Shown in pieces: positions 1 to 36,202 of a stretch of DNA of 64,000 bases; position 1 is the first letter of the stretch; the number at the start of each line of letters is the position of its first letter. This DNA is from a virus. The notes beneath the pieces were generated by a model. It had not been told where the DNA came from. It did no database searches and saw nothing but the letters and a program-made list of their open reading frames with translations. The translations under genes and the position numbers were made by a program. The stretch is from positions 7,663 through 71,662 of IMG/VR virus record IMGVR_UViG_3300042946_000615; one strand, given 5' to 3'.

Positions 1-3000
1 TGGCTTTCCGTCAAAATCACAGCCAGAACCAACGCAAGATACTGAACTGATTGATATGATGCTTCCTTTATTAGTATATAGCGAAGTCAATGACGATGTT
101 GGTGTTGATGCGGTATCTGTAGTTTGTCCGCCAACAGGAGGAGTCGTTGTTGTGGTTGTATTGTCAGACAAATTAGTAAAAGACAAAGGAGAGGATGCTA
201 TGCTTCCGTCTCCAATAACTAAGTGATCAACATATAGCCAGCCACTAACCGTTAAGTTGGCAAAAACCTGAGACTGTTGTCCTGTTGTTAGATCTGTTCC
301 AGATGCTAATAATTTAGGTATGCTGCTATTGACCGCAACAGCAGACGATCCGGCCATAGAAGGAGCATCAATAGGTTCATAATATGCTGCTTTATGCCAC
401 TGATGAAGGTCGGGTAGCCAATATTTGGCAGTAGACAATTTTCTTAGAATGAAAGAATCATTACCAATAGCATTAACTCTATATGCTCCATTATTTATGG
501 TGGCATCTACACTAGTATCTAATACTGTTGCTGCGGCTCCATTATTGACCCAGTTTATAAAACGTATAGCAGATATGTAGCTTACAAATACAACTGGCTT
601 ATTGTCCATGTTTGGCTTGGTGCTATAAACATATCCCTGATCGCTAATTCTGAGTATGCCCCCAGATTTTTCACTTGACATTTTACTATTATATAAATTA
701 TAGTTATCGTTGTTTTTAGCGACAGCATTTAAAAATTTACAGTATTGACTATTAGTAATTTCATATTTGCTGATTCTATAAGAAGTATTAACCAATCCTA
801 ATCTTGGTATAACTTGTTTAATTGTGCTTGATCCTAATTTAATATTCAACCCATCGCCATCCGGAATGTTCGCTGTGTTTCCTACTAGCGAAAAAGATAA
901 TTGCAATCCACTAACATTATTTGTAACGGTAGATAGATCAGTAACTCCATATGAACTTGCTAATCTAAATCCAACACTCTCAAAACATCCTGACCTTGGC
1001 AATAATTCCATTCCCTTTAATCCGCTTACACTAGTAGTTAAATAAGAACCTCCGGCAGCATATTCTTCACTATCTGAAAACTCAATTTGATTTGGTTTTT
1101 CTATCCATTCTGCGGCATTTCCATTTTGATCATATGTGCCATAAAAGGACGGAGTTCCATTACTTCCAACGCTAGACAAAACTCCAGAGAATAAATTACG
1201 ATCTGTAGTATTATCATAATAATAATTTGCTGATGAATATCCATTAGATATACCAGATCCATTTCCACTAAGAACAACAATTGGGAAAATATCATTTCTG
1301 CGTGTAGCAAAACTATAATATTTGCCTGATGGAACAGATACTCTTCCTGTATTCGCCTTGATTAAAAGAGCTGGTTCTTCGTTAGTTCCATAAACCTCAA
1401 AATTAATATCTTTCTTACCAGTATTAAATACTGTGTCTTTTGATGGTCTTATGCTAAGAATATTAGACGATGAGTCATTAATGATCCCATCTGGAACACT
1501 GGTTTGAATAGTTAAATATCCACCCTTAGTTACTGAATAAACGTCAACAGAGGTAATATCTGCATTGGATAATGGCTCATCAATTAATAAACCATTAATA
1601 TTATCTCCAGACAAGTCAATCTCTGTAACATATCTATAATATGTTGATCCAGAAGATGACAGAGCTATCTGATCTCCTAATGTAAATTCAGTACTAGATA
1701 AGGGCGAAGAGAATGTTACTTGTCTTAAACAGATACTGGCTGTTCTATTGTCAAACTTATCCCAAACTATACTTTGTTCAGTTAGAAAATAATCATCTAG
1801 GCTATATATACCAGTTATACTACCGTTACTTGTTGTGCTTAATAACTTATTACCTGGAACGGATATTCTTAGTGAGCCACCATCGGTTAATGATACTGAC
1901 CCGGCTACTACTTTACCAGAAGGATTAACAGTTAATATACTGCTGGGAGATATATTAGGAATAGTTATATTATCTGTTCGTATATTTGCAATAATAGTGC
2001 CTGTTGATGATATCCCGACAGAATTCAACGTAATACTTGGAGCGGTTACCACTACAGCATTTGTATCAACGCTAATATTAGCATTGCTGTTTGATAACAC
2101 TGACGAACCGCCATTTGTTAAAACTAATTTTTGATTTGAATAACCCAGAGTTGTAGAATCAGTATTGCTGTTTAGGGTTTTAATCTCTGATCCACCAGAT
2201 ATTACAACAATATCCACAGCTCCCTTCTCTGATCCTGATGCTACGACCAATGCTCTAGCCTCTATTCTTCCATAATTTTTTTCAACACCGACAGAGTTTT
2301 TGGCTGCTAAATTAATTTGTGAAATTTTAGTATCATTAGGAATATCTGCTATGGGCTTATGAAACAGTGTTATATTTGCTGGATAGCATTGTGATCTATT
2401 TTCTAATCTGATGCCTTGTTGGCAGCCCGTATTTACTATGTGAAATAAAGTTAATGGTCTTGATCCTGTTGGTATATTTAATCCTATGCGACCATCATAT
2501 GCAAAAAAGAAATTTCTATCCTTCGTACCACTACCGTATACTAAAAAATCGCTACTATAATTAAGATTATTAACTATAAAAGGATATAATCCACTAGTTG
2601 GAATAATGGTATCTGCTAAGGACTCAGAGTTTCCTCCTATGAAAACTCTTTTTGAAGGAGCGTCCCAGTATATATCTGATGTATTGATTTGGTCACTAAG
2701 AATTGAAAAAGTATCAGGATCACCATTCGTTGATTGAGCTTGTATTTTTTCTGGAGGAGCACTATTTAGTACTACCCAATCCTGTCGAGTTGAGGCTAGT
2801 CTAACATAATTATTTGATGAGCTGAGTGTGCATGCTATGGATTGATTATCTTTTTTGATGCATAAGGAGCCGTCTCGACTTAGTAGTTTAAATTCAATAA
2901 TGAGATTATCAGCTTGTGATACTGGGGGCAAAGTGACATTAACATCTTGTGCTGAGTCAACAACATATAATGCGCTTACTGGATCTAGGCGACAATCTTT

Positions 3001-3348
3001 ATCAATAACAACTGTATTATTTAATCCCTTATCAAATGAACTCTGATTAGCAAAAATAAAAAACTCATTACCTGAGTTGGGGAAATCATTAAATTTATTA
3101 CCATTAGAAGATTTAATTATTTGTTTTCTTTTAACCAAAATAATACCATCAACAACTATTACCTCTCCAACTCCAGCTTCATATATTTGCTTACTATTAT
3201 TTCTAGCTATATACGGTATGTCATAACCAATATGATGATTTTCTAATAAGCTAAAATTATTAATTTCAGATAAAGGTTGTATATATCCGTCTTTATTAAG
3301 AAGAAATTTAAATCCTATATTATCAAAAACTCTAATTAAGTTACTCAT
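1..3348 (-). CDS. Large virion/tail protein with a circularly permuted FGE-sulfatase (C-type lectin fold) domain; 3' end lies beyond the window edge
   Basis: ATG at 3348 overlaps the TMP stop (ATGA). It is missing from the ORF track, consistent with no stop before position 1 (>1116 aa; spot-checked in frame). Begins MSNLIRVFDNIG; YEAGVG...R..I.KSSNGN is a fibre-type N-terminus. FGE motifs GTYDQNGNAAEW, VGFRLAS, KYEITNSQY, WHKAAYY. Confidence 0.8.
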   Translation of the reverse strand, partial: MSNLIRVFDNIGFKFLLNKDGYIQPLSEINNFSLLENHHIGYDIPYIARNNSKQIYEAGVGEVIVVDGIILVKRKQIIKSSNGNKFNDFPNSGNEFFIFANQSSFDKGLNNTVVIDKDCRLDPVSALYVVDSAQDVNVTLPPVSQADNLIIEFKLLSRDGSLCIKKDNQSIACTLSSSNNYVRLASTRQDWVVLNSAPPEKIQAQSTNGDPDTFSILSDQINTSDIYWDAPSKRVFIGGNSESLADTIIPTSGLYPFIVNNLNYSSDFLVYGSGTKDRNFFFAYDGRIGLNIPTGSRPLTLFHIVNTGCQQGIRLENRSQCYPANITLFHKPIADIPNDTKISQINLAAKNSVGVEKNYGRIEARALVVASGSEKGAVDIVVISGGSEIKTLNSNTDSTTLGYSNQKLVLTNGGSSVLSNSNANISVDTNAVVVTAPSITLNSVGISSTGTIIANIRTDNITIPNISPSSILTVNPSGKVVAGSVSLTDGGSLRISVPGNKLLSTTSNGSITGIYSLDDYFLTEQSIVWDKFDNRTASICLRQVTFSSPLSSTEFTLGDQIALSSSGSTYYRYVTEIDLSGDNINGLLIDEPLSNADITSVDVYSVTKGGYLTIQTSVPDGIINDSSSNILSIRPSKDTVFNTGKKDINFEVYGTNEEPALLIKANTGRVSVPSGKYYSFATRRNDIFPIVVLSGNGSGISNGYSSANYYYDNTTDRNLFSGVLSSVGSNGTPSFYGTYDQNGNAAEWIEKPNQIEFSDSEEYAAGGSYLTTSVSGLKGMELLPRSGCFESVGFRLASSYGVTDLSTVTNNVSGLQLSFSLVGNTANIPDGDGLNIKLGSSTIKQVIPRLGLVNTSYRISKYEITNSQYCKFLNAVAKNNDNYNLYNSKMSSEKSGGILRISDQGYVYSTKPNMDNKPVVFVSYISAIRFINWVNNGAAATVLDTSVDATINNGAYRVNAIGNDSFILRKLSTAKYWLPDLHQWHKAAYYEPIDAPSMAGSSAVAVNSSIPKLLASGTDLTTGQQSQVFANLTVSGWLYVDHLVIGDGSIASSPLSFTNLSDNTTTTTTPPVGGQTTDTASTPTSSLTSLYTNKGSIISISSVSCVGSGCDFDGKP

Positions 3349-6300
3349 TTAATTGATTTTCCCATTATGGAAGTTGTGTCAGGACCAAATATGCCGCTAT
3401 CTAATTGACCTGGACCCTTGTTTATTTTGTTAAATGCGTTGTTTAGCTGGTTATTTGTTTGTTGTTCCATTGATGGACCCAGTGTAGAAAGGACATTGTT
3501 GGCTGCTTCAGCACCGTTGAATCTGTGTTCGCTTGTAACGTTTCCGGTAAGTTTTATACTATCTGGTAAACTTACAGTACTAAGTTTATCAGCATATGAT
3601 CCCAAGTTTGTTGTGGAGCTCTTTAATCCGTCAACTAATGATTGTGATTGTGATCCGAAATTATCAATAAATCCGGTCATATTTTGATTTAATTGATTAA
3701 TTTGAGATATCTTATCTTCCAAAGAACTAGACATTGACTGTACTATCTTATTTAAAGCAGACTCTATGTCTCCAATGTTAGAACTATTATTAGATACACC
3801 AGGGGCTTGTTTGATAGCATTCGAAAGTTGTTGTCCTCCATCGGCATAATATTTGGGTGCAACAACTCCACCATTGGCCAAATAATTAACAATTCCACCT
3901 CTATTAAAGTGGCCACTATTAATAGCATTAAGGAGAGGCATATGCTTTTGGCTAGATTCTCTATTGACTACAAATTCTCCAGGAGTCAACATGGCTGGCA
4001 CATTATCTGTACCAGAAGCTGCTTGAGCTAATGCTCCATTATTAGCATAAATTAATCCCCCAGTATTATGATGACTTGCTTCATGTCTTTTGTTTGGATC
4101 ACTAGTTACTTTTTGTACAAGTTCTGCTTTATGAAAAGGTTCAATAGTGCTTTTAGCAATTGTATGACCCGTGTGCTCACCCAAATGAGTATATTTATTT
4201 CTTAGTGTTGGCATTCCAAGATCATAAACGCTTTTAATATTAGAAGGCCTATTGCTAGCCAAAGCGCCAGCATCATGAATAGCTACTGTTGATGTCATGG
4301 TTTCTCTAGCCACACTACCTCCTCCCAAAGGAACCTCAATAGTTGGAACCATATCAGGATCAAATATTTTGCTCGTAGGATTTTTTGAGACTTGAATTCC
4401 AAAGTCTTTTATTACAGCTTGTGATGCTAGTTTTGGATCCAGACCCTTACTCGTAAGTCTAGTAGTTTCAGCATTAATAATAGTGCTTGGCTCTAGAGTT
4501 CCCATAGCTGCTTGCTTTACCATATTAGGATCAGCAGATAGCGTGGGACTCTTCTCAACCATTTGTCGTACCGTACTAGCAGAGTCTTTTGCACTTCCAA
4601 GCGTTGCTGTAGCATTATCTAATGCTCCTGGTACCATATCAGCTGTCATTACCTGTGCTGCTTTAGAACCAACTTGTTGAGCATTAGGAAGTGCATATCT
4701 GCTAACAGCAGCTCCAACATCAGCTGATTTTTCTCCTGTTAATGCGTAACTACCTGGCCCGCTATTTCCTGGCCAAAAGAACTTGCCATTACTCTCCGTG
4801 GCTCTCCAAACATCTGGACCTAATACTTCTATTGGTTTGCCTGTGGCAGTGTCGATTGCTGCTTCCACCATAGGAGATACTCCAGCTTGTCCTCCTGATA
4901 GTGTTCGGCTTCCTGCTATACCTTCTCCGTGTCTCCACCATTCCGCAGTTTCTGCTGCTGCGCCAGGAGCAACAGGAGCTGGTCTAACTGAGCTTAAAAC
5001 AGAATTACCTTTTGAAGCAATCTGAGCTTCAGCATGCATTTTTCCTGCTGCTGTAGTAAAATTAGCGATATCCTCTGCGGTTTGTGTTCCGTGAGTAAAA
5101 GGGTCTCTACGGGCATAACTAAGAGTTTCTGCTCCTTGTATTCCCAAATCTGTAACCTTACCAGCTGTTTTGGCTGCCAAAGGAATAGGATCAGCAGCTA
5201 AATTAAATGCACCTTCTCCAACTATTGGAGCAAGACGTTGAACTGTTCCAGCAGCAGTTCCAAACTCATCTGTAACTTGCGCCACTTGACTATCCATAAT
5301 CTCATTAGCAGCAGCAGTGGCTTCTGCTCTTTGTTTTTCATAAACTCCTCCAGATAAATAATCTAGCCCTAGTCCTTGTCCAGCCATAGCTCCGCCAGCT
5401 GCTATATTTGCTGCGCCTAAATCTCCCGTTTGTTGACCGCTTTTAGATAATCCACCAAAAAATCCATCATCGCTAGCACCTAAACCTTGTCCAATATCTC
5501 CAACCATCATACCAGCACCACCAGCGGCTATTTGCATAGCTCCATAACCGGACTTACCAATACCTCCTAATACTTGCATTGGTGGAAGTTCTGCTACAGT
5601 ATGTAGAGCGTGTGGTATGTCTTGTTGAACTTGCTGTAAAGCTAATTGATTAGCGCTATTTGCTGCCATTTCATTAGCAAGATCTCCTTGTGCTCTTGCT
5701 ATCTCCATATCATTAATATTAGCATAATCATTATTTGATGATATACCCATCATATCATTTACATTATTTAGCATAGCTTGTCCAGCTGCGGCATCATAAG
5801 CGCTAATTTGTGGACTTTGTTGTGGCTCAAGTCTCATATCCTTAAATGGGTCATTAGCTGGATCTGCTTGTGTGATAGGACGAATATCTGGTGCTTTTTG
5901 TTCATCATCTGTTCTTCCGCCTGTAGCTAAATATTTTACTGGATTTTCTCGCTTATATTGAAGAATATAGTCCACTCCTTTGTCCATCCATGCTTTTTCA
6001 TCATCAGAAATAGGCATAGGCTTCGGTTTCAGGGGCAGATAACCGGGACCGTCGTAAATAGTAGAACTGGGACCGTCTGGGAAAAAAATGTCTTGCATTG
6101 CCTTTTTTTGTTGTATAGTATTTCTCTTAATTCCTTCAATAAACCATCTAGTTTGTGCAAGTTCATTTTCCTTAGCCGCCCATTCCTCAGGTGGTGGATT
6201 TCTAATGTCATATGGCTTGCCATATACTCGACTCTTATCAGGAGCTTTACGCTTGGTTTTTTTATTAGTTTTCGTCTTACCTCCTTTACTTAAATAATTT

Positions 6301-9300
6301 ATCTCACCTCCTTTACTTTTGTTAATAGCATGTAAAAGTCCCAAATTCTCCTTTGTTGATTTTGCATTAACAACAAACTCGCCAGGAGTTAGCATAGCAG
6401 GAACAGTATCAGTACCCTTTGGTGAAAAATCAATTAATTGTCCATTTTCAGCATATATCAATCCTCCACTAGCTCTTCTGGCTGGTTTTTTAGTCTTGGT
6501 TTTTTCTTTTTGAGGAGATGTTACAGCTTTTACTCCTGACGATATGAGCTGAGCACCTCCAGCAAGAACCGCTCCCTTTTTTATAAGATCTGTTGTTGAT
6601 GATTTGGTGTCTGGAGCAGATGGTAATGGGGTCGTGGGATCTTTATTTAATAAGCTATTATATTTACTTAACTCTTTTACATAGCTAGGATTATCTAATG
6701 GTTTCTGACCCAAAGATCTTGCAACAGCTGCTTCTTCTTGAACTCTCGCTAGCGCATTATTAACGGCTACATCTTGTGGTACTTGTGCTTTAGTACCTCG
6801 AATATCCATTCTGGCTTGTGTAAATTCGTCCATTGCTGAGATTCTTGGCCCGGCGCCTTCGGCTAATACTCTGAATTTTTTAGGTAGTTTTGATATAACT
6901 CCTTTTGTTAATAAGTTTTGATCGTCTAATATCCCTAATATTCTGGATACTGCATGACTTTGTTCATGTAAAGCAGCAAATGTGTCTGTTGGACTTCTTA
7001 GTACTGTTGTGCCAGTGACAGATCCTGGGGCGTCTGGTCTAAAGTAACCTCTACGATTTAATGCTGGATTAATACTAGTAGGTGTCGCCTCGGCTAATTG
7101 TTGAATTCTTTTTGCGACTACTGCTTCTCCCTTGGGAGTTAATCTTTGTGGACTGCTATAGCTTGTTGTTCCTGGCTTTAAGTCGAGCATTTCTGGCGCA
7201 AGAGCTTTGGCTGCTCTTGCGTTTAGTGTTGTGGCATCACCTCCTCCTGTTCCGAATTCTGTTCCTCTCATTGCTCCTTTCTCTATTGCTGAGCTAGCCT
7301 TTGCAATAACTGAATCTTTTCCTCTTTTAACTTCTTTGCCAATATTTTGCCATAGTCTCGCCTCTTCTGCGTCATTAAGCTTTTCAGTTATATTATATCT
7401 GGATTCGTCTAAAGCTTGTTTCATATCTTTATCTATTGCTGATTCTGCTTTAGTTTGTTCTGTTGTCATTTGTCTTTGCGATTTTTGTCCACCAAGAATA
7501 CCTTGTCCTCTACCACTGAGTTGTTCAGCAGTTCTGGCGCTATTTGCCATAGAAGCTATTCCTGCCGTTATCTGAATAAGATCAACAGCATCTTGTGGAG
7601 TGGATTCTCCCTTAATAACTCTTCCAGCAATATCAGGAACTTTTCTAAGAGATGCTCCAGCCGTTACTACTCCAACAGGAGTAAGCATACTAGCAGCAGC
7701 AACTCCAACAGCTGTTATATCTTCTGGTTCAGATGTTCTTAAATAGTTTGTTCCATCGGCAAATAAAACATTACCATTTTTATCAGAATACTGTATAGGA
7801 CCATGTTTCTGGATCATTTCTTCTAAATCTTGTTCTTTTTGGATTTTATTCAAGGTTTGAATAGAAGATGCTCCGGTTCCTCCTTGGGCAAAAATTACAG
7901 GCGGAACACCACCACTATCTCTCCATAAAGTATCTTTTGTCTTAGACTCTAAAGAAGCAAACATTTCTGCGTCCGTTAGTGGACCGGCCAACATAGGATC
8001 CACACCAAGTGCCACAGCATCTTCTTTAGTTAGTTTAGCTTGTGTTTTAGTATCTTGAGATCTATCTCTAGAAGCTTCGAATCTGTTTCTAGCTGATAAT
8101 CTAGCAACATTTTTTCCGTCTGCACTAATTTCCAGACCAGCTGTGTGTCTTTCAGATCCGTCAAGTTTAAAGCCTGTTACATAGTCCACTAGTCCTGCCA
8201 TAAAATTAGAAACCGCCTCGGCTCTTTCTTTAACTCTTTTTGTTCTGTCTGAGCCTATCATTTCTGGCGGCAATGTAGCATCGAATACTTCTGAACCAAA
8301 TAACTTGGGTTTATCGGCACCGTATTTTTTAAATAAGTCTCTAGCTTTTTTAGCTTCAAAATAATCTTCAGCATTTTTATAAGACTCACGAGCCCAGCGC
8401 TCTCCGTCTGGCTTATTAACACCTCTGCCAAGTCCTATTGGATTTAACCCAGCACTGGCCCTGCCAGTAGAACCAAACTCAACCTGAGCATGTCTTAATT
8501 GCTGTAGTCGTTTCTCTCTTTCGTTATCGCTTATGCCTTCTTCTTGAGAATGTTGTCTATATACGTCTATAATTTTTTTGCCTTCATCTATGGCAAATTG
8601 TACTTTTCTTGCAGACTCTTCTGCTGTTCCTGCCCTAGAAGAAGTTGCTTGCTGAGCAACAACCGTTGCTTGTGCTTCTTTATTAGCTGTTGACTGAGTT
8701 ACGGAAGGTGCCAAAGGCTGCTGTGTCTGAACAGGTTGTGATTTTGTTGTATTAACCGGTGACGTTCCGGAAGATGTATTAAGTGGTTTGCCATCTTTAT
8801 CCAGACCCATTACATTTAGTTTCACTTGAGCAATCTGTCTAACTATTGCTGCTTCTCCTCTAGGATCATTAGCCAAAGTCACATAATGCTGTGGTTCCAT
8901 TTTGCTGTAATCTATATCTAATAGTTGGTCGCTAATTGTTCCATCAATATGTGGATATCCAGCATTAGTGGGTTTTACAGGAGTAGTCGGTACGGTCATT
9001 CCTGATGGTGTTGTTTTATCCGCAAGTAAGTCTGGCCAAGATGGAGATTTAGCAATAACATTATTCACATAATCTTTGATTTGACTTGCGTATCTAGGAT
9101 TAGATGGTGATACAACTTGTGGATCTGTTAAAGATGATGATGTTGTGATTGTTTCTGAAGCTAGGGTGGGTTTTGGTAATTGGCCATTAATCGCTTCAGC
9201 CCTTGCTCTGCTTTTGTATGAGGGGTTTCTATAATCATATTCATTTTCGCCCTTATCATAATCGTGGCGACTAATATTTCCGTTTTTGTCTAAGCGGAAT

Positions 9301-15300: not shown

Positions 15301-18300
15301 GCTTTATATTTTTTGGGTAATGTCTTATAGAACTCTGGGTTTAATCCACTGTCTTGAAACATATTACCAAGGATTGAATTTGCTCCTTTATTACCAACTG
15401 CTGATGCCGATATGAGTACTGGTACTACTTCTAAGCGACCTAAATCATACTGTGACTCTCCTATTGATCCAAGTATTCCGTTAGATAGATTAGAAAGATT
15501 TTTTTTTGTCTTTTTCTTAACTGATTCTATAGCTAATAAAGAAGTGTCTGGTCCATAGGGTGAATTAGATTTACCTGGTATCGGAAAGAAGTGCTCAGGT
15601 TTATAATCCTTTGGTCCGGCCCACTCAGCATTAGCTGGATCATTATACCATTTAATTATATCGTCTTTATATTTTTCTGCTGATACTTGTAATTTATCTA
15701 TAATCTCTGGATGATTATCATATAAATATCCTTGAATATCATGAAAAGTTTCGTGAGCAAGAACTCCTTTGTGTTTTCCTCCAGCTGTCTTAATAATATC
15801 TTCGCCGCCTTGAAATAGTAGATTCTCATCTATAAAAGTTTTTAATGCACGATACTCATCGTCTGGTATAGTTTTTTTATTTTTTTCTAACCTATGTCTC
15901 ATGGTTTTATAATGCAAACCACCCTGATAAAATGCTCCTGTTTGTTCTTCTGGTGGAACTTGTTCACTCTTGCCTAAAAGTATTGACATCATTGTGCTTC
16001 TACTTTTTTCAGCAAGAGTTCTTGGTGGTATAAATTCAATAGGTTCTGCTTGTCCTGATGGCATTTTAAGATAGCCGTCAGACGTTAACATTTCTTTTGG
16101 TAAAATACTTGCAAGTATTTGTTTATACTCTTCTTCAACTTTTCCACCTTTAGCAAACTTATAATGTATCGCTTCGTGCCCCTGACCCTTCAATCGCGTT
16201 ATTGTTTCTAAATTATCGTCAATCATCTTTTGATAACCGGTAATCTTCTTATTTTGAGGACCGTCTGATCCTCTTATTTTTGATACGGGAATAGGCAGCC
16301 CTAATCTTGACAAGGTATCAGCCAATATTCCTGCTTGATTCTGATTTCTGGCTGAAAGTATACTAATGTTATCAACAAGAGAAGGTTCCTGTTTGATTGC
16401 TTCGGATAAGTGTTGTCCTAGTGGGGTTAACTTTCCTTTTTTTAGCATCTGCTCAACTAGTGGAATATTATCTTTTTGAGATAAGTCTAATGAACCGTCT
16501 GGTTTTCTAATTTCTCCACCGGTAACTAGAGTATCATCAAAATCAAAAACCATTTCTTTAAATGGGCCGGTCGAGTTATTGTTTGGGAATATTTCTCCAT
16601 ACTTTTTAAGTAGTCCTCCGCCCGATAATTTCTGAACCATCTTATCGTTCTTTGGTTCTGGGATTCCATATTGTGCTCTAAAATATCTTTGAAATTCTTC
16701 AACAGCCTTGCCTCTACTACCACTGTCTATTGTTCTTTTAACCTCTGTGGGAATATCAGGATCGATACCAAATATTTTTGCTGCTTTAGGTCCGATGCCC
16801 ATTGGGAAGTCTATTGGACGAGTTCTTAAAGCGTCGTCTAATATTGTGGCATCTGCTGATCCAAAAATTTGTTCTAGTAAAGCGCCTTCAATATTGCCCT
16901 GACCTAATGTTTCTCTTTGTTTTTTACTTAATTTTTTTGGAGTAATTCCAAGAAGCTTAGATGCTCCACCGACAATTTCTTCTGTTTGACCACTAAGATA
17001 ATCAATGACATTTTGATACTGTGTTGGTAATCCTCTCTGAACTATTGATGCGTCTATTGATCTTTCTTGGCCAGATGGATCGATTCCAAGATTCCAAGTT
17101 TCTGGCCCTAGTAATCCAGTATATCCTAATGGATTTAATCCAACCAACCCTAACTGTTTGGAAGATAACACAGCATTAGTTGTATCTTCTAGGGCTGTAG
17201 CCCTTTGAATTCCTTGTGATTCATTAAATTTATCTATTAGGTAGTCTCTTGTTGCAGTATAGTAGGCGAGTTTATCTGCTTTTGTTTCTGGTCTAAAAGC
17301 AGAATTCCAATATTTTAGTTTTCCACCATCAGCAGTATCTCTTACTGTTTTTCCTGAGAATGGACCAAAACTAGCGTCTGTCGGCAATCTTGATGTTCCA
17401 AATCTTTTTAGAATCTCTGATCCTTGTGCTGGTAATATTCCGGAGGACTTTTTGACCTGGGTAGTCTTTTCTACATTTTTTAGTATTGCAGCTTCTAGTC
17501 CAGAAGGCATCGCTGTTGGAACTCCACCAAACTCACCACTCATCTGTTCTGAAAGTTGTGCTGCTATAGTCTCTCTTGTTATGTCTGATGGCTGTGCAGA
17601 TACGGAGGATTTTCTTGATGGATCTAGTCCATAAATTTCTGGATATTTAGCAGATAGTGCTCTGATAATGTTGAATGCTCTATAACCAAAGGCTCCTCTG
17701 GACGCTCTATCTCTTTGACTTCTGATGTCTTGAATTTGACCAGCTATTTCTGGAGCATTTTGCTTTAGCTTAGCATTGACATTACCATAGGGGCCACCAG
17801 GGGCAGATGCTAGTAATCCACTAATCTCCGCATTAGATTTTGCTTTGTCTTGATCAACAAATTTTTGTATTTCTTCAATCAGCATGGGAACCATCGTGCT
17901 ACGATTTCTTAACTGTGCTCTGTTACCCATGAGAATCGATGCTACTTCAGGATTAAGAAAACTAGTTAATGTTTTATCATCACCAGAAAATAACGCGTCT
18001 CTAACTTTAGTGGCACTGATATCTTCTATTCTTGGAATATCTTTAACATTCATTCCTGCTCTCTCATATTTACCAAGAACACCTTCTTCTTTTCCTGATG
18101 TTATAGCCATAGCTCCTTTTAATTTAGCAAATCTTCTTCTGTCTCCGCTTCCAGCAATTTCCATAAATTTTGACAAACCGCCAGCAGGCTGGTCTTGGGT
18201 ACTAATCTGCGCATTTCCAAAGTTTATTTTACTTAATAGAGCTCTAAAATCTGCTGGGAAAATACCATATCGTGCAGCGTGTTCTATTCCTTCTTTACCG

Positions 18301-21300
18301 GCGATCATAGGAAGATCCGGAGCAACGCTCACAACAATATCTTCTAAAGAAGAGTTTGGATTTTTAGCTAACATATTATCCAATAGAGTATCTAGTGCTC
18401 CACGATGACCCCTGGTAGGAGGAGCAAAGCCTCCTGTATAAAATCCACCAGCTTGAACTATTTCTGGCAATTCATTTTCTCTTTTACGTCTTAAGCCAAA
18501 ACTGTCTTTTTTTCTTCCTAGTACAGTTGCCCTTTTGCCTAACTCATCTCTTAATATAGTCTCTTCTAAACCAAAATCAGAATTAGCACCGACTGTAGTA
18601 CCTGGTTTACGACCGTATAATCCTTCTCCAGTAAGATCTCTACTACTTCTATTTGACCTTACTCTGTCTTGTTCATCTCTACTATTAGAGCTTAATATAT
18701 ATGCTCTATCAACATCTTTTAAATAAGAATCTAATTTAGTTTGACTAGCTGTTGAAGTTAGTACAAAAACCTCATTAACTTTTTCTATATCCTCAGGTGT
18801 TAATATTTGAGAGCGAGTTGTTTTTCTCAAAGTAGCATCATCATTAGCTCCCTTACCAGTTGCCACACTACTTTTTCCACTTCCAGCAGCCCCAGCAATA
18901 GCCATGAATTTTGATAGTGATTTATTTTTTCGTGCTTTAGCAGCCAACTCTCCGAGTCTTGTTGTGTAATCACTAACATCAGTGATTCCAAGCTTTTCCA
19001 TTGCTGGTCTAACCACTGTTGCATTAGCTGCGTCTCTTAGGACATCTGTATCAATTATACCAATATTCCTTAAAACTTGTCCACCGCGAGCAAATTTTTG
19101 AATTTTTCCGCCTCTAGCAAGTTCTAATTTGCCAGACTCATTCCATTTTCTTCCTGTTGTCAAAGAAGAATCCATAGTAAATCCGCTTGCTAAGTACCGA
19201 CCAAATCCACCACCAACCTTTATCTTACTCGTATCTTTAAAATCAGCTATCTGTGTTTGTAGTGCTTTTGTACCTTCTTCGGCAGCTTTAGATGCTGTCA
19301 TATCGTTTGAGACATAATAATCTGATGGAATGACGAATCCGCTTGGTCCTTGTTTTGGTTTTCTTTTATTTTTATTTTTTTGTATATCTAATAAATTTAC
19401 AGCTTTGGCTTCAGATACTCTACTGGTTTTATTACCAATTTCATAGGTATCAAAATCAGCAATTCTAAAACTAGCAGTAAAGGGTTTTCCTGTGGGGGTA
19501 ACTGTAGCAGTAAATGTATCTCCATCCGTGGCCTTTTGATCTCCGTCTATACTTGCTACTTCTGCTGCTCCTCCTTTAGCAAATTTTTTCCTTTTACCTG
19601 CTCTTCCGCCACTCCTAATACTTCCACCACCACCATACTTATTTATATTATGAAGATTATTTGATCCAATAGTTTCAACAGCTTTCTTTCTTATAACAAA
19701 TTCTCCTGGCATTAACATAGCAGGAACAGTATCTCTATTTCCTGATCCTGGAACAACGCCACCTCTGGCAAACTTACGAACAGGGCCGCCATCTGCAAAT
19801 GGTTCTGATCTACCAGATCCCTTTTTATTATCTGGTCCTCCTCTGAACCCCTTATTAAATCCACCAGCAAATTGAGTTAATGCTTTTGCTCCTTTAAAAG
19901 CAAGCATAACGCTTAATGCAGGAAGTAGAGTTTTGCTAGCATCTGCAACCTTTATTAAAGCTCCAGATAATGACAACGCTCCTTTAACCAGCGTTTGGAA
20001 TCCTTGACTTTGGCCTAGTTCTCTGAATAGTGCAAAAAATTGTTCTCTAACTTTGCTAATTTGATTAGCCAAAGAGAGTTGTGCTTTTACAGCATCTCTG
20101 GCTAGCGAACCTTGTCCTTGTTGGGCCACTGCCAAAGCCTCTTGAGCTACTGAAAATTGTTGGATTAACGGAATAACCTTACCGATTTGTCGGAATCCAC
20201 CAAGTTCTTCAACAATTCTAGAAAATTTTAAGTCTCTTGGATCAATAGAATTTAATCCTTCGCTTAATAACTGTACCGCTTTATAGGCTCCAACGAATTT
20301 ACCCTGAGCATCAGTTAAATTAACACCAAACTCCTTTAGAGCATTAATTGTATCTCCTCGCTGCACGCGAGTAAAAATAGTTCTTAATCCAGTAGCAATA
20401 GTTTCTGCACTTTCACGAGTAGTTGCTCTAACGCTAGTAAACACAGCAATAAATTCATTAAGAGCATCAGTTCCGGTACTAACTCCTTTACTGGCTGTTG
20501 CAAACACTCCACCGGTACGCTGAATGGCTGCTATAATATCACTAGCTTCAACAGCGAATTTAGCAGCAACGGTATTTACTGAGCCGAGTGCTGATTCTAA
20601 TTCACCAGCGCCTATGCCGAACTGTCTCATTAAAGCGATACTGCCTTCTACCGTTTCGTTCATACTGTCGAATGAAGGGGCTAAACTACTTAATGCTAAA
20701 GCTTTTAATGATCGTTCTGTGTCTTTTGCGCTCAATCCTGCCTGAGCTAAAGTTACAGCTACTGTTGTTAACTCTTTTGAACTAACGCCCAAAGAAGTGG
20801 ATAAATCAGTAATTCTTGATTGTAATTGTGTTAGTCCTTTTAGTGACTGACCAGTAACTTGTTGTAATCTAACTAATTCCTTATCATATTCTATAAAAGC
20901 CTGAACACCCTTACTAATACTATTAGTCAAACCATAAATAACACTGGTTACGGTAGCAAATGCAGTAAATCTTCTAACTGCTAATCCGGCCTGCTTACCG
21001 AAATCTTCCATCTCGTTAGTAACGCTAGAAAATGATGATTTTGCTTTGGTTGCATTGTTATTTAAAGTGGATACTGATTTACTAATATTATTAACTTGTT
21101 GTGGAATATTATTAAGCTTAACAGAATTAACCGATTGACCAAGCATCTTTATTGCAGAGGCGGCTGATGATGCGGACTTATTAGTTGCTGATAGTGTAGA
21201 ATTTAATTTTTGTAATGCTGATGTTAGTGCTGTTACGTTTTTTGTTGCTGTTGGATCTAACTTAAAATTAACAGTAGCATTAACATTGCCAAGATCTTTC

Positions 21301-21380
21301 TTTATCTGAGCAGCTATCTGTTTAACATTTGTCGGCCCAACCAAATTTAGTTGAGCTGTTAGATTAAATCCTTTAGACAT
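3345..21380 (-). CDS. Giant tail tape-measure protein (6011 aa) fused to multiple enzyme/effector domains
   Basis: Lies directly after the tail tube and chaperone genes. The N-terminal ~500 aa resemble the TP901-type TMP core (EYDKELVRLQQVTG, LAQAGLS, helical Ala/Gly-rich). Five DTVPAMLxPGEFV modules typical of TMPs; internal enzyme motifs are listed in the findings. Confidence 0.9.
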   Translation of the reverse strand: MSKGFNLTAQLNLVGPTNVKQIAAQIKKDLGNVNATVNFKLDPTATKNVTALTSALQKLNSTLSATNKSASSAASAIKMLGQSVNSVKLNNIPQQVNNISKSVSTLNNNATKAKSSFSSVTNEMEDFGKQAGLAVRRFTAFATVTSVIYGLTNSISKGVQAFIEYDKELVRLQQVTGQSLKGLTQLQSRITDLSTSLGVSSKELTTVAVTLAQAGLSAKDTERSLKALALSSLAPSFDSMNETVEGSIALMRQFGIGAGELESALGSVNTVAAKFAVEASDIIAAIQRTGGVFATASKGVSTGTDALNEFIAVFTSVRATTRESAETIATGLRTIFTRVQRGDTINALKEFGVNLTDAQGKFVGAYKAVQLLSEGLNSIDPRDLKFSRIVEELGGFRQIGKVIPLIQQFSVAQEALAVAQQGQGSLARDAVKAQLSLANQISKVREQFFALFRELGQSQGFQTLVKGALSLSGALIKVADASKTLLPALSVMLAFKGAKALTQFAGGFNKGFRGGPDNKKGSGRSEPFADGGPVRKFARGGVVPGSGNRDTVPAMLMPGEFVIRKKAVETIGSNNLHNINKYGGGGSIRSGGRAGKRKKFAKGGAAEVASIDGDQKATDGDTFTATVTPTGKPFTASFRIADFDTYEIGNKTSRVSEAKAVNLLDIQKNKNKRKPKQGPSGFVIPSDYYVSNDMTASKAAEEGTKALQTQIADFKDTSKIKVGGGFGRYLASGFTMDSSLTTGRKWNESGKLELARGGKIQKFARGGQVLRNIGIIDTDVLRDAANATVVRPAMEKLGITDVSDYTTRLGELAAKARKNKSLSKFMAIAGAAGSGKSSVATGKGANDDATLRKTTRSQILTPEDIEKVNEVFVLTSTASQTKLDSYLKDVDRAYILSSNSRDEQDRVRSNRSSRDLTGEGLYGRKPGTTVGANSDFGLEETILRDELGKRATVLGRKKDSFGLRRKRENELPEIVQAGGFYTGGFAPPTRGHRGALDTLLDNMLAKNPNSSLEDIVVSVAPDLPMIAGKEGIEHAARYGIFPADFRALLSKINFGNAQISTQDQPAGGLSKFMEIAGSGDRRRFAKLKGAMAITSGKEEGVLGKYERAGMNVKDIPRIEDISATKVRDALFSGDDKTLTSFLNPEVASILMGNRAQLRNRSTMVPMLIEEIQKFVDQDKAKSNAEISGLLASAPGGPYGNVNAKLKQNAPEIAGQIQDIRSQRDRASRGAFGYRAFNIIRALSAKYPEIYGLDPSRKSSVSAQPSDITRETIAAQLSEQMSGEFGGVPTAMPSGLEAAILKNVEKTTQVKKSSGILPAQGSEILKRFGTSRLPTDASFGPFSGKTVRDTADGGKLKYWNSAFRPETKADKLAYYTATRDYLIDKFNESQGIQRATALEDTTNAVLSSKQLGLVGLNPLGYTGLLGPETWNLGIDPSGQERSIDASIVQRGLPTQYQNVIDYLSGQTEEIVGGASKLLGITPKKLSKKQRETLGQGNIEGALLEQIFGSADATILDDALRTRPIDFPMGIGPKAAKIFGIDPDIPTEVKRTIDSGSRGKAVEEFQRYFRAQYGIPEPKNDKMVQKLSGGGLLKKYGEIFPNNNSTGPFKEMVFDFDDTLVTGGEIRKPDGSLDLSQKDNIPLVEQMLKKGKLTPLGQHLSEAIKQEPSLVDNISILSARNQNQAGILADTLSRLGLPIPVSKIRGSDGPQNKKITGYQKMIDDNLETITRLKGQGHEAIHYKFAKGGKVEEEYKQILASILPKEMLTSDGYLKMPSGQAEPIEFIPPRTLAEKSRSTMMSILLGKSEQVPPEEQTGAFYQGGLHYKTMRHRLEKNKKTIPDDEYRALKTFIDENLLFQGGEDIIKTAGGKHKGVLAHETFHDIQGYLYDNHPEIIDKLQVSAEKYKDDIIKWYNDPANAEWAGPKDYKPEHFFPIPGKSNSPYGPDTSLLAIESVKKKTKKNLSNLSNGILGSIGESQYDLGRLEVVPVLISASAVGNKGANSILGNMFQDSGLNPEFYKTLPKKYKAGGVIRDIWHGTTTGKDDSVLESFKKYGAKSDVSHGFGQGHGFYVYSDPTSAMLRAMELEGGANFLTAADPNGRPMALKFTELLDGKNWDLDYEFQNADIVNFIHANYDRVKEAIAKSKGVDLGTNLKDFSLDKKYDEYLDTTDNTMMRKMGISFKDQGKDAEKLLANNNSGDARSGEVLSSLVKSLMHSDPDFYEEFENSFFNNLKPKQGLKYVGKDPLKPVLAQIFTRQKNINDTGWITEKFAKGGSPKDTVPALLTPGEFVVNKDAAQKIGYSNLHKLNKADKVQGYNKGGVVGTFQKLAGGGFADPNSFIRKFGQWFTEQPKNNQVKRFDRRPDIIGRASTQINKDVPKVLEDLIEGINKLGFSAAQSATVIKKLRNSSEVSYKEVEKALSGDLDKLKTAGAGFDTIIRAEEALYQIRRQGKRDVDLKRNLEGAFSQRGSATAQFMGGKMMMGDINQGSAAAQEMIEKEAQYIISGATQKLRASGKDVDLSKLTDKAYKIAASKVSGVSQKSFSDFDISGKDIKEYINESKRDRKTLTELDKEYAAQKMAELKRSSQFASVGSKQQQRMIKELEKETRREISVRRSLINDLASRTGQKGVGAIDMMDFNNSPILKYIKSLSAPQVLGGASIATGLVAGQGKNIGRLLYGQQNNDAKIKSAETSAAIESSGIIISTGLATAAEILANVPGKAGVIAASIVAIGSTLYGLAEYFSDISGSQAEARRQQQSENRAVQLDAAMERLNRSAKEYETNVGNTDLRNNLSDALKDVNNISVSDAQFQLREAKLDFGRQSPIAGMTPSKATGLQYINETLGNMIASVMPTFTGLGASRETMGAQEMARINAEMASKNKETGAIAQQAIMSALSQGATREDIISGDKYTNERAGLLMSDVKGVAAFNAAMASASSAVGGRELTEGELDEVLKKVTKDYYEQGNVILDTIIKANDLAKAMEAADRAGRQLAVSFDRMIDSINQSINRIQYESQQRTKYAQSRIKGLTGESGPPEINIPELNILENPQAYTPQDFALAVGKAADLIGGKEGKNIESMINFSKSLPDVMTKAIADRLSTEASLTKEDASAQALSVGQGIINSSGLDNETKEKLNSQLEAYVKNASEKISDEGLANNRKVALEIFLDQIRTSSSALGEGLARKATDAAKAMLEFRQNGLNDFAKSLQQSSDYIRQSTELRRKADKIMYKANIDTREIFRDVGESYNEAKGQTLNEVAQMTGGITDPVAIAQAIRQESDRINDPNTGLVKQRDDALLNKDFNDVIQFTQDIQDSSDKIKNYNDALDKLANSTNMYERALQEAKNVAETQKDRQSFVEKLLTNTPEEADNLNQAFIRLQRNLSGGLNSPWNQRDARKAFNEALFKTGSMREAYRAGNTVLANQRKETLGLMQDPGFKAIIKGQIQNQRATAGQGLLSEADLDNMFRQQEGKMMQQMAIESGFANNPVVMQAIQTKMNPESEPMAQAAANQVLEAAGLQKAATEEQAKLREVQAMELNVFAMDNLTVAIIDLKNQLADSFSRNDTIEGRDSSGAKTIQLNLGTTDLGEQYQNQAAITASRGGLIYAAEGQMIDFKPKGTDTIPAMLSPGEFVINAKSTAQNLPLLEAINNGYANGGKVKYFKDGGLASLFRGFDKDQNSILSENEFLDYFSDFDLNKDKAIDINEFLEYGNKVQNRAKLLRLLNKAGTFHNKRYDQLKNKADKRTFSEESEYKNYNEILSSQLKSDTLRAEEIRQQKNSFRRLNLNIKGKAKRTPEEEIEYQNLREEQRVLNPEIRRKQESIRRMNLNMKGKAKRTQGEEEEYQSLRQKWTKENPIEASKAKKITERQARLNENNRYIYQRQDQYRRERLGLDPAQEKEPSTPQSTAVGAKASTQVAAAQSRTEDNRRKQLWLKGSKGRTPEEESEYTKLRSLYEERKGKSKTKKADSAADPNAAQEAAIEDANARVTGLMNRFASSMGPIQDANDYVNRWTLAATALGPTIMKQWMANNTEPFRLDKNGNISRHDYDKGENEYDYRNPSYKSRARAEAINGQLPKPTLASETITTSSSLTDPQVVSPSNPRYASQIKDYVNNVIAKSPSWPDLLADKTTPSGMTVPTTPVKPTNAGYPHIDGTISDQLLDIDYSKMEPQHYVTLANDPRGEAAIVRQIAQVKLNVMGLDKDGKPLNTSSGTSPVNTTKSQPVQTQQPLAPSVTQSTANKEAQATVVAQQATSSRAGTAEESARKVQFAIDEGKKIIDVYRQHSQEEGISDNEREKRLQQLRHAQVEFGSTGRASAGLNPIGLGRGVNKPDGERWARESYKNAEDYFEAKKARDLFKKYGADKPKLFGSEVFDATLPPEMIGSDRTKRVKERAEAVSNFMAGLVDYVTGFKLDGSERHTAGLEISADGKNVARLSARNRFEASRDRSQDTKTQAKLTKEDAVALGVDPMLAGPLTDAEMFASLESKTKDTLWRDSGGVPPVIFAQGGTGASSIQTLNKIQKEQDLEEMIQKHGPIQYSDKNGNVLFADGTNYLRTSEPEDITAVGVAAASMLTPVGVVTAGASLRKVPDIAGRVIKGESTPQDAVDLIQITAGIASMANSARTAEQLSGRGQGILGGQKSQRQMTTEQTKAESAIDKDMKQALDESRYNITEKLNDAEEARLWQNIGKEVKRGKDSVIAKASSAIEKGAMRGTEFGTGGGDATTLNARAAKALAPEMLDLKPGTTSYSSPQRLTPKGEAVVAKRIQQLAEATPTSINPALNRRGYFRPDAPGSVTGTTVLRSPTDTFAALHEQSHAVSRILGILDDQNLLTKGVISKLPKKFRVLAEGAGPRISAMDEFTQARMDIRGTKAQVPQDVAVNNALARVQEEAAVARSLGQKPLDNPSYVKELSKYNSLLNKDPTTPLPSAPDTKSSTTDLIKKGAVLAGGAQLISSGVKAVTSPQKEKTKTKKPARRASGGLIYAENGQLIDFSPKGTDTVPAMLTPGEFVVNAKSTKENLGLLHAINKSKGGEINYLSKGGKTKTNKKTKRKAPDKSRVYGKPYDIRNPPPEEWAAKENELAQTRWFIEGIKRNTIQQKKAMQDIFFPDGPSSTIYDGPGYLPLKPKPMPISDDEKAWMDKGVDYILQYKRENPVKYLATGGRTDDEQKAPDIRPITQADPANDPFKDMRLEPQQSPQISAYDAAAGQAMLNNVNDMMGISSNNDYANINDMEIARAQGDLANEMAANSANQLALQQVQQDIPHALHTVAELPPMQVLGGIGKSGYGAMQIAAGGAGMMVGDIGQGLGASDDGFFGGLSKSGQQTGDLGAANIAAGGAMAGQGLGLDYLSGGVYEKQRAEATAAANEIMDSQVAQVTDEFGTAAGTVQRLAPIVGEGAFNLAADPIPLAAKTAGKVTDLGIQGAETLSYARRDPFTHGTQTAEDIANFTTAAGKMHAEAQIASKGNSVLSSVRPAPVAPGAAAETAEWWRHGEGIAGSRTLSGGQAGVSPMVEAAIDTATGKPIEVLGPDVWRATESNGKFFWPGNSGPGSYALTGEKSADVGAAVSRYALPNAQQVGSKAAQVMTADMVPGALDNATATLGSAKDSASTVRQMVEKSPTLSADPNMVKQAAMGTLEPSTIINAETTRLTSKGLDPKLASQAVIKDFGIQVSKNPTSKIFDPDMVPTIEVPLGGGSVARETMTSTVAIHDAGALASNRPSNIKSVYDLGMPTLRNKYTHLGEHTGHTIAKSTIEPFHKAELVQKVTSDPNKRHEASHHNTGGLIYANNGALAQAASGTDNVPAMLTPGEFVVNRESSQKHMPLLNAINSGHFNRGGIVNYLANGGVVAPKYYADGGQQLSNAIKQAPGVSNNSSNIGDIESALNKIVQSMSSSLEDKISQINQLNQNMTGFIDNFGSQSQSLVDGLKSSTTNLGSYADKLSTVSLPDSIKLTGNVTSEHRFNGAEAANNVLSTLGPSMEQQTNNQLNNAFNKINKGPGQLDSGIFGPDTTSIMGKSIK

Positions 21381-33839: not shown

Positions 33840-33840
33840 A

Positions 33841-36201: not shown

Positions 36202-36202
36202 A

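Follow-up and report, generated by a model that had tools for sequence, protein, structure and literature searches.

A giant, cysteine-free tape-measure protein of an uncultured lake-water phage as a predicted chain of exchangeable enzyme-like cassettes

Does a tape-measure protein (TMP) of 6,011 residues serve only as the ruler of a phage tail, or does it carry enzymes into the host cell at infection? This question is raised by an open reading frame (ORF) of 6011 codons plus stop codon, which runs uninterrupted on the minus strand at positions 3345..21380 of a stretch of 64,000 nucleotides (nt) (positions 7,663 to 71,662 of IMG/VR virus record IMGVR_UViG_3300042946_000615; referred to as the window in the following) and encodes the giant TMP P0001. 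A first-pass annotation, made from the letters of the window alone, had described the product as an injected polyprotein in which a normal TMP N-terminus is followed by a string of enzyme effectors, and every motif that it had listed was found at its place in the protein (Table 1).

According to sequence comparison, the protein is a chain of cassettes, in which a scaffold kept in most relatives alternates with slots of exchanged content. The scaffold comprises the N-terminal TP901-type domain, a block of P-loop and HIGH-motif nucleotidyltransferase, a core cassette that hardly varies, a long stretch of helical/hydrophobic character and the C-terminal end, and the slots appear to hold here SNase-like, HAD-like, HExxH and ADP-ribosyltransferase (ART)-like cassettes together with about 2,000 lineage-specific residues. 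Strongest among the new facts are a family of this size and spread, an exchange of cassettes delimited by junctions, the near-absence of cysteine (Cys), and genuine SNase, ART and nucleotidyltransferase domains inside TMPs. That the TMP is a carrier of enzyme cargo delivered at infection is plausible, and the balance of the evidence inclines slightly towards it.

The gene, its family and the junctions between cassettes

The ORF of 6,011 amino acids (aa) is genuine and is the TMP gene of an uncultured tailed phage from lake water. Residues 190-382 matched Pfam PF10145 (PhageMin_Tail) with 74.2 bits (cut-off 33.2, E 1.6e-20) and residues 19-510 matched at least five PHROG tape-measure families (phrog_28 at E 5e-27), which bears out the proposed normal TMP N-terminus; the protein thus belongs to the TP901-type family PF10145, and its gene has the position of a TMP gene in the tail module, upstream of large distal-tail proteins. 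In 20 runs with 20 study codes, all labelled as lake-water or freshwater metagenomes, 82-96% of the 31-mers sampled from the first 10 kb of the gene were present. Contigs from four runs covered 30 of 30 bins over 18.7 kb, mostly with at least 99% identity; none of the listed single contig pieces spanned the whole 18.7 kb, and no insertion, deletion or joint was listed among the overlapping pieces. This tiling speaks against the assembly chimera that the first-pass annotation had named as a way in which its reading could fail. Of the listed variant positions 33 of 40 were synonymous in frame (56 further positions lie beyond those listed), with 30 of 32 in residues 156-3309 and 3 of 8 in residues 3613-5133. 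Due to this strong excess of synonymous variants the frame is considered to be under purifying selection, and the lineage-specific part may be less constrained, the numbers there being small.

No close relative from an isolated phage was found in INPHARED, where the N-terminal domain identified SPbeta-type and other TMPs at 22-26% identity and residues 760-1600 had no match, and a scan of GTDB genomes revealed no relative of the giant TMP. In a search limited to proteins of 3306-10520 aa, with residues 600-2290 as query, at least 106 giant relatives of 3327-7670 aa were found, 93 of the 106 with PF10145 on record. A later profile search yielded 50 additional proteins of at least 2000 aa and up to 7872 aa, and the family totals at least 130 clusters.

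Coverage by the 106 relatives alternates along the protein, the scaffold being shared by 74-101 and the slots by 2-54 of them (Table 1). For 16 distinct relative contigs obtained from scans of IMG/VR and metagenomes and compared as DNA, unrelated inserts of 208-764 aa were found to separate the N-terminal domain from the P-loop block, and relatives from other assemblies were collinear across thousands of residues. The ends of the BLAST matches of the 106 relatives cluster at residues 750-760, 1580-1600, 1740, 2010-2030, 2260-2330, 3650-3660 and 5030, and these clusters coincide with sites of a short motif, [FYL]AxGG. Coverage, inserts and match ends together show that blocks are gained, lost or replaced while the flanks stay, which is the comparison that the first-pass annotation had proposed.

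The motif [FYL]AxGG occurs in 13 copies, compared with 0.64 on average and never more than 5 in 500 shuffles, and is often extended to DTVPAMLTPGEFV. Five times it forms part of a unit of 45-70 aa with the pattern [FYL]AxGG ... (T)D(T)VPAMLTPGEFV(V)N ... L..(I)N (junction units 1-5 in Table 1), and orphan shorter [FYL]AxGG(x)V motifs stand at the remaining cassette borders (residues 600, 754/763, 1585, 1742 and 2025). A co-occurring variant contig diverges at window position 19113 (residue 757, at a junction) in three of the four runs; altogether, variant contigs leave the sequence at positions 19113, 15697 and 5891 in two to three of four runs, 5891 being located 13 residues past LATGG (residue 5151) and 15697 within the HExxH cassette. 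The long junction unit is present in 0-7 copies per relative (mode 5, median spacing 1181 aa). A PGEFV-type unit was also found once each in the TMPs of 131 INPHARED records of isolated phages, among them phages of Gordonia, Mycobacterium, Clavibacter, Stenotrophomonas and Microcystis. From its distribution the junction unit is a widespread TMP element which is not confined to the giant family, and it may act as a recombination point and as a processing or folding boundary. A profile search of the PDB found no solved structure that has it.

Three observations on the junction unit may be added. In the T4-like cyanophages S-SM2, P-TIM68 and Bellamy (NC_015279.1 7674-7808, KM359505.1 and NC_047838.1) a PGEFV-type unit is located in proteins annotated as hypothetical or transmembrane. 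Within junction unit 4, 39 nt (window 6372-6410) are 97% identical to the marine single-cell virus record MH319758.1, and junction unit 1, compared as protein, is matched best by another record of the same series. Due to these two matches the junction appears to be conserved even at the DNA level across unrelated viruses.

The second property common to the family is the near-absence of Cys. The 6011-aa protein contains none, 107 giants contain 28 in 558,836 residues (94 of the 107 are Cys-free) and the 50 further giants 12 in 192,041 residues, as compared with 0.87% Cys in the record's 34 remaining minus-strand ORFs of 150 aa or more. Since 80 stand-alone homologues of the ART-like cassette do contain Cys (0.32%), its avoidance seems to be specific to cassettes inside a TMP. 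Secreted proteins and proteins threaded in the unfolded state tend to avoid Cys, and threading or transit may be the reason here as well.

Table 1. Features of the giant TMP, with their positions in the window and the number of the 106 giant relatives that share them (residues compared in brackets).
Feature	Residues	Window position	Strand	Motifs (residue) or basis	Relatives sharing, of 106
TP901-type TMP N-terminal domain	1-535	19776..21380	-	PF10145, PHROG	~96 (1-600)
Junction unit 1	525-600	19581..19808	-	FADGG/FARGG ... DTVPAMLMPGEFV ... FAKGG; matches TMP PHROGs 35029, 37649, 5448	
SNase-like cassette	601-760	19101..19580	-	DGDT 619 (DGDTF 619), FR..D..YE 638-647, GRY 727	39-54 (601-750)
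P-loop NTPase-like part	761-975	18456..19100	-	Walker A GAAGSGKSS 830	~80 (751-1250)
HIGH-motif (TxGH) nucleotidyltransferase-like domain	976-1250	17631..18455	-	GGFAPPTRGH 983, ISATKVR 1121; profiles	~80 (751-1250)
Core cassette	1290-1590	16611..17513	-	NIEGALLEQ 1496, PIDFPMG 1522, PTEVKRT 1544 (E/ID/EVK 1496-1550)	101 (1501-1550)
HAD-phosphatase-like cassette	1600-1742	16155..16583	-	DFDDT 1613 (FDFDDTL 1612), SAR 1676, K 1711, DD 1721 (IDDN 1720)	~55 (1601-1750)
HExxH cassette	1743-2024	15309..16154	-	AHETFHD 1875 (HETFH 1876); invariant E 1984	26 (1751-2000)
ART-like cassette	2025-2270	14571..15308	-	HGT 2036, GQGxGFY 2064, DLDYE 2116, KYVG 2239 (HGT/GFY/DYE 2036-2120)	34 (2001-2250)
Junction unit 2	2262-2335	14376..14597	-		~84 (2251-2350)
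Low-Pro, Ala/Gln-rich stretch	2336-3616	10533..14375	-	composition, hydropathy; hydrophobic segment 2713-2741	77 (2951-3650)
Junction unit 3	3590-3660	10401..10613	-	repeat unit	
EF-hand loop pair	3661-3705	10266..10400	-	two canonical loops (3668-3699), DKDQNSILSENE and DLNKDKAIDINE	
Lineage-specific variable cassette(s)	3706-4967	6480..10265	-	FAQGG 4497, HEQSH 4805, hydrophobic 4554-4578	2-11 (3701-4900)
Junction unit 4	4968-5040	6261..6479	-		74 (4951-5050)
Lineage-specific variable cassette(s)	5041-5769	4074..6260	-	LATGG 5151	2-4 (5101-5700)
Junction unit 5	5770-5850	3831..4073	-	repeat unit	
Conserved Asn/Gln/Ser/Thr-rich C-terminal end	5851-6011	3348..3830	-	composition	66-89 (5751-5950)

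Enzyme-like cassettes of the scaffold and the slots

Depending on the cassette, residues of catalytic type are conserved in 27-85 homologues, and they are invariant among homologues that are only 25-40% identical. The best-supported cassette is the one at residues ~976-1250, predicted to be a nucleotidyltransferase domain in agreement with the HxGH nucleotidyltransferase proposed before. The motifs GxFxPxTxGH and ISxTxxR follow each other in order; their P, G, H, S, T and R do not vary among 12 diverse sequences, which reach down to 32% identity, and both motifs are conserved in 85 sequences. Pfam PF16581 (cytidylyltransferase-related C-terminal region) matched all 13 rows bearing the block, out of 19 rows scanned, at sub-threshold level (best E 2e-4; E 0.044 only for the segment of this protein itself) and exceeded the Pfam cut-off in the relative P0091 (29 vs 26.7 bits), while PF01467 matched three rows. 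When a 12-row profile was compared with the PDB, MJ0951 (3gmi_A) was found at E 2.2e-4 and 3op1_A, which is labelled otherwise and presumably is a FAD-synthetase-type chain, at E 0.018 across 157 columns from HxGH to ISxTxxR; phosphopantetheine (PPAT) and nicotinamide-nucleotide (NMNAT) adenylyltransferases matched more weakly (E 1-2). With residues 760-1250 alone as query, no protein of 270-860 aa was retrieved.

The preceding part of this block was described before as a P-loop kinase. Its Walker A motif is conserved in 85 sequences, and the segment gave weak matches to assorted P-loop families and to UvrA (E 0.0027); the conserved motif stands, whereas the assignment as a kinase, made from the motif only, found no support. 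Readings of the P-loop, nucleotidyltransferase and HAD cassettes as a system for RNA repair (Pnkp-like kinase and HAD phosphatase) or for NAD salvage were supported by no test. The core cassette that follows is the most conserved piece of the protein, near-invariant among loci that are 54-85% identical overall, and was found as a single copy in 132 proteins. Its profile matched nothing in the PDB, and its scores in the ESM Atlas were below 0.9 and are regarded as leads only.

In the first slot, the motif residues of the SNase-like cassette (DGD, R and D.YE, of Ca-binding and catalytic type) are conserved in 44 sequences. A relative, P0035, carries in the same slot a canonical SNase domain (PF00565, 35.8 bits with a cut-off of 21, full profile length), and a comparison by hhalign of the clade of the present protein (26 rows) with the P0035-type clade (5 rows) gave a probability of 91% and E 9e-7. 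PF00565 itself matched neither the cassette of this protein nor eight SNase-like rows, and the PDB profile found no SNase. The SNase-like nuclease of the first-pass annotation is thus supported in part, by its residues, by the hhalign comparison and by the content of the slot in P0035, but not by a match of its own in Pfam or the PDB.

For the proposed HAD phosphatase, all four HAD motifs occur in order and are conserved in 61 sequences; 12 diverse sequences agree without exception in A, R, K and DD, and DxDxT is present in 10 of 10 covering rows, one of which has V for T. The motifs are well kept, but similarity in profile or fold was absent, as neither Pfam nor the PDB profile nor Foldseek gave a match (model confidence 50-70 in this cassette on the scale of the predicted local distance difference test, pLDDT).

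In the HExxH cassette, none of the 10 diverse sequences compared departs from the H, E and H of the motif or from a Glu 104 residues past the second His. The cassette was predicted by AlphaFold2 as a helical domain (pLDDT up to 94), the confident part being all-helical, and no zincin or other significant match in fold or sequence was obtained with Foldseek against PDB and BFVD, with the PDB profile or with PF23847. The ESM Atlas, in which the core and HExxH cassettes scored 0.83-0.88 (leads only), offered a 'peptidase family' lead at 0.86 for the latter. Of the HExxH peptidase suggested before, the conserved motif residues hold, and its assignment as a peptidase is derived from the motif only. 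HExxH is found four times in the protein (residues 5766, 4805, 1876 and 1735; window 4071-4085, 6951-6971, 15738-15758 and 16164-16178) as compared with 0.02 copies expected from composition, and only the copy at residue 1876 is conserved in relatives. The copies at residues 5766 and 1735 were rejected as candidates since they are not conserved; both immediately precede a junction motif.

The ART-like cassette is distinguished by its occurrence outside of TMPs. With a 7-row profile, 890 proteins were found at E <= 1e-3 among 1.84 billion representatives, and among the best 150 of these 890 there were 137 new identifiers, 80 of them proteins of at most 400 aa which mostly span nearly the whole cassette. 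Because stand-alone proteins of this size carry it, the cassette is considered to be an autonomous domain. In a 60-row alignment H12, Q41, D94, E96, K215 and Y216 are invariant; with respect to the H-Y-E residues of ARTs, H12 and E96 are invariant, F45 is nearly so, and Y46 is the consensus residue without being listed as conserved. A protein search with this alignment retrieved only six proteins, and no stand-alone ART-like protein was found in INPHARED.

Links of this cassette to the ART clan are weak but concordant. DUF3990 matched weakly in 5 of 11 ART-like members (best E 0.031), PARP in 1 of 10 stand-alone proteins (E 0.055), and Foldseek placed Pseudomonas exotoxin A domain III at E 3.9-4.8 for the region. 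DUF3990 is listed in the Pfam ART clan in the available text of PMC7955679, and is placed at the C-terminal tip of an Rhs toxin in that of PMC4524185. Neither the 7-row nor the 60-row profile matched the PDB, the segment of the protein itself showed no ART-clan match, and PF13151 was unmatched in the record. What stands of the ADP-ribosyltransferase of the first-pass annotation is accordingly a real domain family with invariant H, D and E and weak clan signals, but no match in the PDB or for the segment itself.

In order to see what the variable slots of relatives contain, 19 of them were scanned with Pfam. Two gave sub-threshold matches to ADPrib_exo_Tox (E 3e-4 and 6.7e-3), and in another relative, P0080, this family reached 31.6 bits (cut-off 23.4) within a variable slot of 1,550 aa. 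Together with P0035, Pfam-significant domains of SNase and of ADP-ribosyltransferase toxins are thus located in variable slots of family members, as would be expected for the proposed cargo. One of the 19 slots (L008:17726-22492, residues 545-644 of the segment) also showed a weak match to HEPN_AbiV (E 0.0028, below the cut-off).

Delivery of cargo and the alternative explanations

If the TMP is a carrier, the protein would be assembled into the tail as other TMPs are and would exit through the tail tube in an extended state at infection. The enzyme cassettes would then refold in the host, possibly after cleavage at the junctions. Their targets would be nucleic acids of the host, nucleotides or NAD-dependent molecules, and they would act ahead of all phage gene expression. 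Such a mechanism would be the tail-borne counterpart of polyvalent proteins and of effectors fused to structural parts of injection machines.

Several results weigh against delivery of enzyme cargo. When scanned as a whole with Pfam, the protein gave no enzyme family at E <= 0.1, 16 of the 19 scanned slots of relatives had no Pfam match (E <= 0.01), and PDB profiles of the SNase-like, ART-like, HAD-like, HExxH, core and junction cassettes gave nothing relevant. Structure models calculated with AlphaFold2 from shallow alignments of residues 601-1760 (19 rows) and 1743-2340 (11 rows) reached a mean pLDDT of 52.1 and 57.7, respectively (23-50 over the core cassette), and neither model had a Foldseek hit in the PDB at E <= 0.001; the best matches were a chain of a cyanophage pre-ejectosome (E 0.2) and the pol theta helicase (E 0.32), and the best one in BFVD was Gp610 of Bacillus phage G (E 0.013), which has no known function. 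The hhalign alignment of the SNase clades spans 31 columns only, namely those with the catalytic motifs. In the core cassette, which had been described as a PD-(D/E)xK nuclease, invariance is limited to D, G and T, the first E and the lysine of ExK being variable (TDATRT, ADVTRT, TQAKLT); the nuclease assignment is not supported, and the profile gave no match. No universal protease was found, and the HExxH cassette is present in about 26 of the 106 relatives. The hallmark domains of polyvalent proteins, that is the processing metallopeptidase (MPTase), ART-PolyVal and LPD-type domains, were not detected by Pfam in the protein at E <= 0.1 or in 30 segment members at E <= 1, and the likeness to polyvalent proteins that had been suggested is not borne out in this respect. 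Finally, folded domains would exceed the lumen of the tail tube, for which reason an unfolded or chaperoned state has to be assumed.

With regard to the fold comparison that the first-pass annotation had named as a check, the catalytic residues are kept but no significant Foldseek match was obtained; with models of such low quality, a missing match does not speak decisively against enzyme folds. Searches of the record for PF13151, PF18143, PF13671 and PF23847 gave no candidates (they were no more sensitive than hmmscan), and phmmer searches of the PDB with residues 601-2280 and 3661-6011 gave nothing meaningful. Most of the protein is without a match to a family in Pfam, PHROG or the PDB.

A protein that is solely a ruler or scaffold would explain several of these results. 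At 0.15 nm per residue, its 6,011 residues would line a very long tail (up to ~0.9 µm), and the enzyme-like stretches would be decayed remnants or spacers, consistent with the family-less majority of the protein and of the slots of relatives, the low AlphaFold confidence across most cassettes, the TMP-like composition of residues 2336-3616 and the general occurrence of the junction motif in TMPs. This explanation is nevertheless improbable, as remnants or spacers are at odds with catalytic-type residues that are invariant among such distant homologues, with the nearly exclusively synonymous variants over residues 156-3309, with the existence of the ART-like cassette as a stand-alone protein family and with the Pfam-significant SNase and ART domains of relatives. 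Cassette swaps moreover alter the length by hundreds of residues between close relatives, and under the ruler explanation the length of the tail would therefore change each time.

The site of action of the cassettes might also lie outside of the cytoplasm (cell surface, periplasm or matrix), where active cassettes would aid penetration, for example as a nuclease acting on extracellular DNA. ART, HAD and P-loop chemistry requires cytoplasmic cofactors, the best-supported cassette is a nucleotidyltransferase and would need nucleoside triphosphates, and Pfam finds no peptidoglycan-hydrolase family in the protein, which together make an extracytoplasmic role unlikely, even though the EF-hand pair and the Ca-dependent-type SNase motif are present and the near-absence of Cys fits extracytoplasmic life. 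TMPs of the SPbeta type are annotated as lytic transglycosylases, and enzyme motifs of TMPs which serve wall penetration are known (available text of PMC1796659).

A polyprotein expressed late, as a means of producing many enzymes during infection with only processed scaffold pieces ending up in the virion, is very unlikely: the repeated junction motifs could be cleavage sites and an HExxH cassette is present, but this cassette is missing from about 80 of the 106 relatives, the gene is located in the late tail module, and Cys is avoided in all cassettes and not in their stand-alone homologues, which points to a constraint on the whole chain. That the ORF is an artefact, from a chimeric assembly or a frame open by error, might be argued from the lack of a single contig piece spanning the 18.7 kb, but can practically be dismissed in view of the 20 runs and the four-run tiling, the collinear relatives of other assemblies and the excess of synonymous variants.

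Enzyme-bearing TMPs and polyvalent proteins are already known. The T4 Alt ADP-ribosyltransferase and the N4 virion RNA polymerase are packaged in the virion, injected with the genome and act before phage transcription; these are separate proteins packaged in the head, unlike the cassettes here, which are parts of the TMP. The TMP of mycobacteriophage TM4 carries a peptidoglycan-hydrolase motif, as described in the accessible part of PMC1796659. The TM4 and SPbeta-type TMPs share with the present protein the TP901-type N-terminal domain and catalytic modules beyond the role of a ruler, but have one or two wall-hydrolase motifs in ~1-2.3 thousand residues, as opposed to 6 thousand residues with several exchanged cassettes of nucleic-acid, nucleotide or NAD type, among which Pfam detected no wall hydrolase.

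Polyvalent proteins were proposed by Iyer et al. (2017, PMC5512222, as far as its text was available) to be delivered with the DNA and processed by embedded peptidases. As in that description, one huge polypeptide would combine several enzyme domains of the conflict type (ART, nucleases) that vary between relatives; here, one of these domains is supported (the nucleotidyltransferase), two are supported in part and the rest are motif-only assignments, whereas the variation between relatives is clear. Unlike in polyvalent proteins, the carrier is a tail TMP, a term absent from the available text of PMC5512222, in which neither a junction motif nor a lack of Cys is described for polyvalent proteins. 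The TMP is mentioned only as a conduit in PMC7824862. The conserved delivery part with exchangeable toxic or enzymatic cassettes is shared with effectors of contractile injection systems (CIS), one of which is related to tape-measure proteins, and with polymorphic toxins, according to the accessible parts of PMC11126660 and PMC4524185; the Rhs toxin of the latter source carries a cassette of DUF3990, the ART-clan family that matched weakly here. CIS effectors and polymorphic toxins are bacterial weapons, whereas the present protein is a phage virion protein with many cassettes per chain and no evident immunity gene. No description of giant TMPs with strings of non-muralytic enzyme cassettes was found in the literature searched, the scope of which did not extend to paywalled papers and supplements.

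In a broader reading, which is tentative and rather doubtful as a whole, a widespread class of phage tails, not described so far, would double as protein-injection devices, with the TMP as a junction-coupled, Cys-free, polymorphic train of effectors that disarms the host early. The cassettes would then include new families of ARTs, nucleases and nucleotide-modifying enzymes, the [FYL]AxGG/PGEFV junction would be both the recombination point of cassette exchange and a boundary for processing or for unfolding and refolding, and the Cys-free chain would allow threading through the tail tube and refolding in the host. Defences based on nucleotides or NAD and host nucleic acids would be the targets before phage genes are read.

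Should the cassettes reach the host and be active there, non-contractile phage tails would rank with type VI secretion systems, extracellular contractile injection systems and conjugation systems as carriers of exchangeable effector domains, and the first seconds of infection would involve a far larger protein payload than assumed. Because each member contains thousands of family-less residues, the giant TMP family forms a pool of new enzymes and possibly of functions directed against defence. The junction motif and the Cys-free rule provide testable design rules and could serve the loading of foreign cargo into phage tails. Even if delivery of cargo does not hold, TMPs of twice the length of the longest matched PHROG TMP profile (3,103 positions) put the ruler model to the test.

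Remaining segments of the protein and genome neighbourhood

Beyond the ART-like cassette, the long stretch of residues 2336-3616 had been described as a second TMP-like helical and membrane region. Its composition resembles that of the N-terminal TMP part, it contains one hydrophobic segment, and its C-terminal 700 aa are conserved; the composition fits the TMP-like part of this description, but neither a match to a TMP family nor similarity to the N-terminal domain was found. For the EF-hands that follow, two canonical loops are present but the Pfam match (EF-hand_7, E 0.018) remained at 15.8 bits, below the cut-off of 30.

The lineage-specific residues 3706-4967 are common to 2-11 of the 106 relatives and had no family match. 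The second HExxH motif proposed there (residue 4805) belongs to a module common to only three to four of the 106, and found no support. Three Lys/Arg/Glu-rich repeats of 35 aa with the pattern ..R.LNLN.KGKAKRTPEEE.EYQ.LR.. start at residues 3782, 3824 and 3928, in a segment spanning residues 3770-3965 (window 9486-10072). Residues 5041-5769, likewise without a family match, are shared by 2-4 relatives over most of their length and by 13-18 in the two end bins; the possible second ART at residues 5481-5544 was rejected, as the ART-like profile does not match it. The C-terminal end is shared by 66-89 of the 106 up to about residue 5950, after which the number falls to 38 and 10.

The window is part of a single virus record of 71,662 bp (linear class, estimated completeness 48%), of which the giant gene occupies 25%, while the record of a relative, with 175,133 bp, is rated 100% complete. 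All large ORFs of the record are encoded on the minus strand, in the order large terminase (window 53552-55576), portal (51308-53494), fibre-like genes (31998-47290), nine ORFs, the giant gene and genes for proteins of 1156 aa and 818 aa. None of the nine ORFs has a convincing family; the matches of four of them are weak and concern families whose function is unrelated or not known. Since the tail-sheath family PF04984 matches neither this record nor the complete relative, which is weak evidence, the tail is likely to be non-contractile.

Some further genes were noted in this neighbourhood. The 1156-aa protein encoded just downstream of the TMP gene (window 1-3348, continuing to C1:7540-11010) has an FGE-sulfatase (sulfatase-modifying-factor-like) domain at residues 855-992 (E 8e-12), which appears unusual in a distal tail protein. 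A 339-aa ORF of the tail region (window 29324-30343) ends in a C-terminal proprotein-convertase P-domain (E 7e-8). A gene for an ERCC4-type nuclease (window 55569-56057) overlaps the start of the terminase gene and is adjoined by a gene for a nucleotide-sugar epimerase (window 56315-57325; phrog_540, E 3e-73). At window positions 58000-64000 the GC content rises from ~0.35 to 0.44, the GC skew becomes positive and few long minus-strand ORFs are found, and this region may be the border of the structural module.

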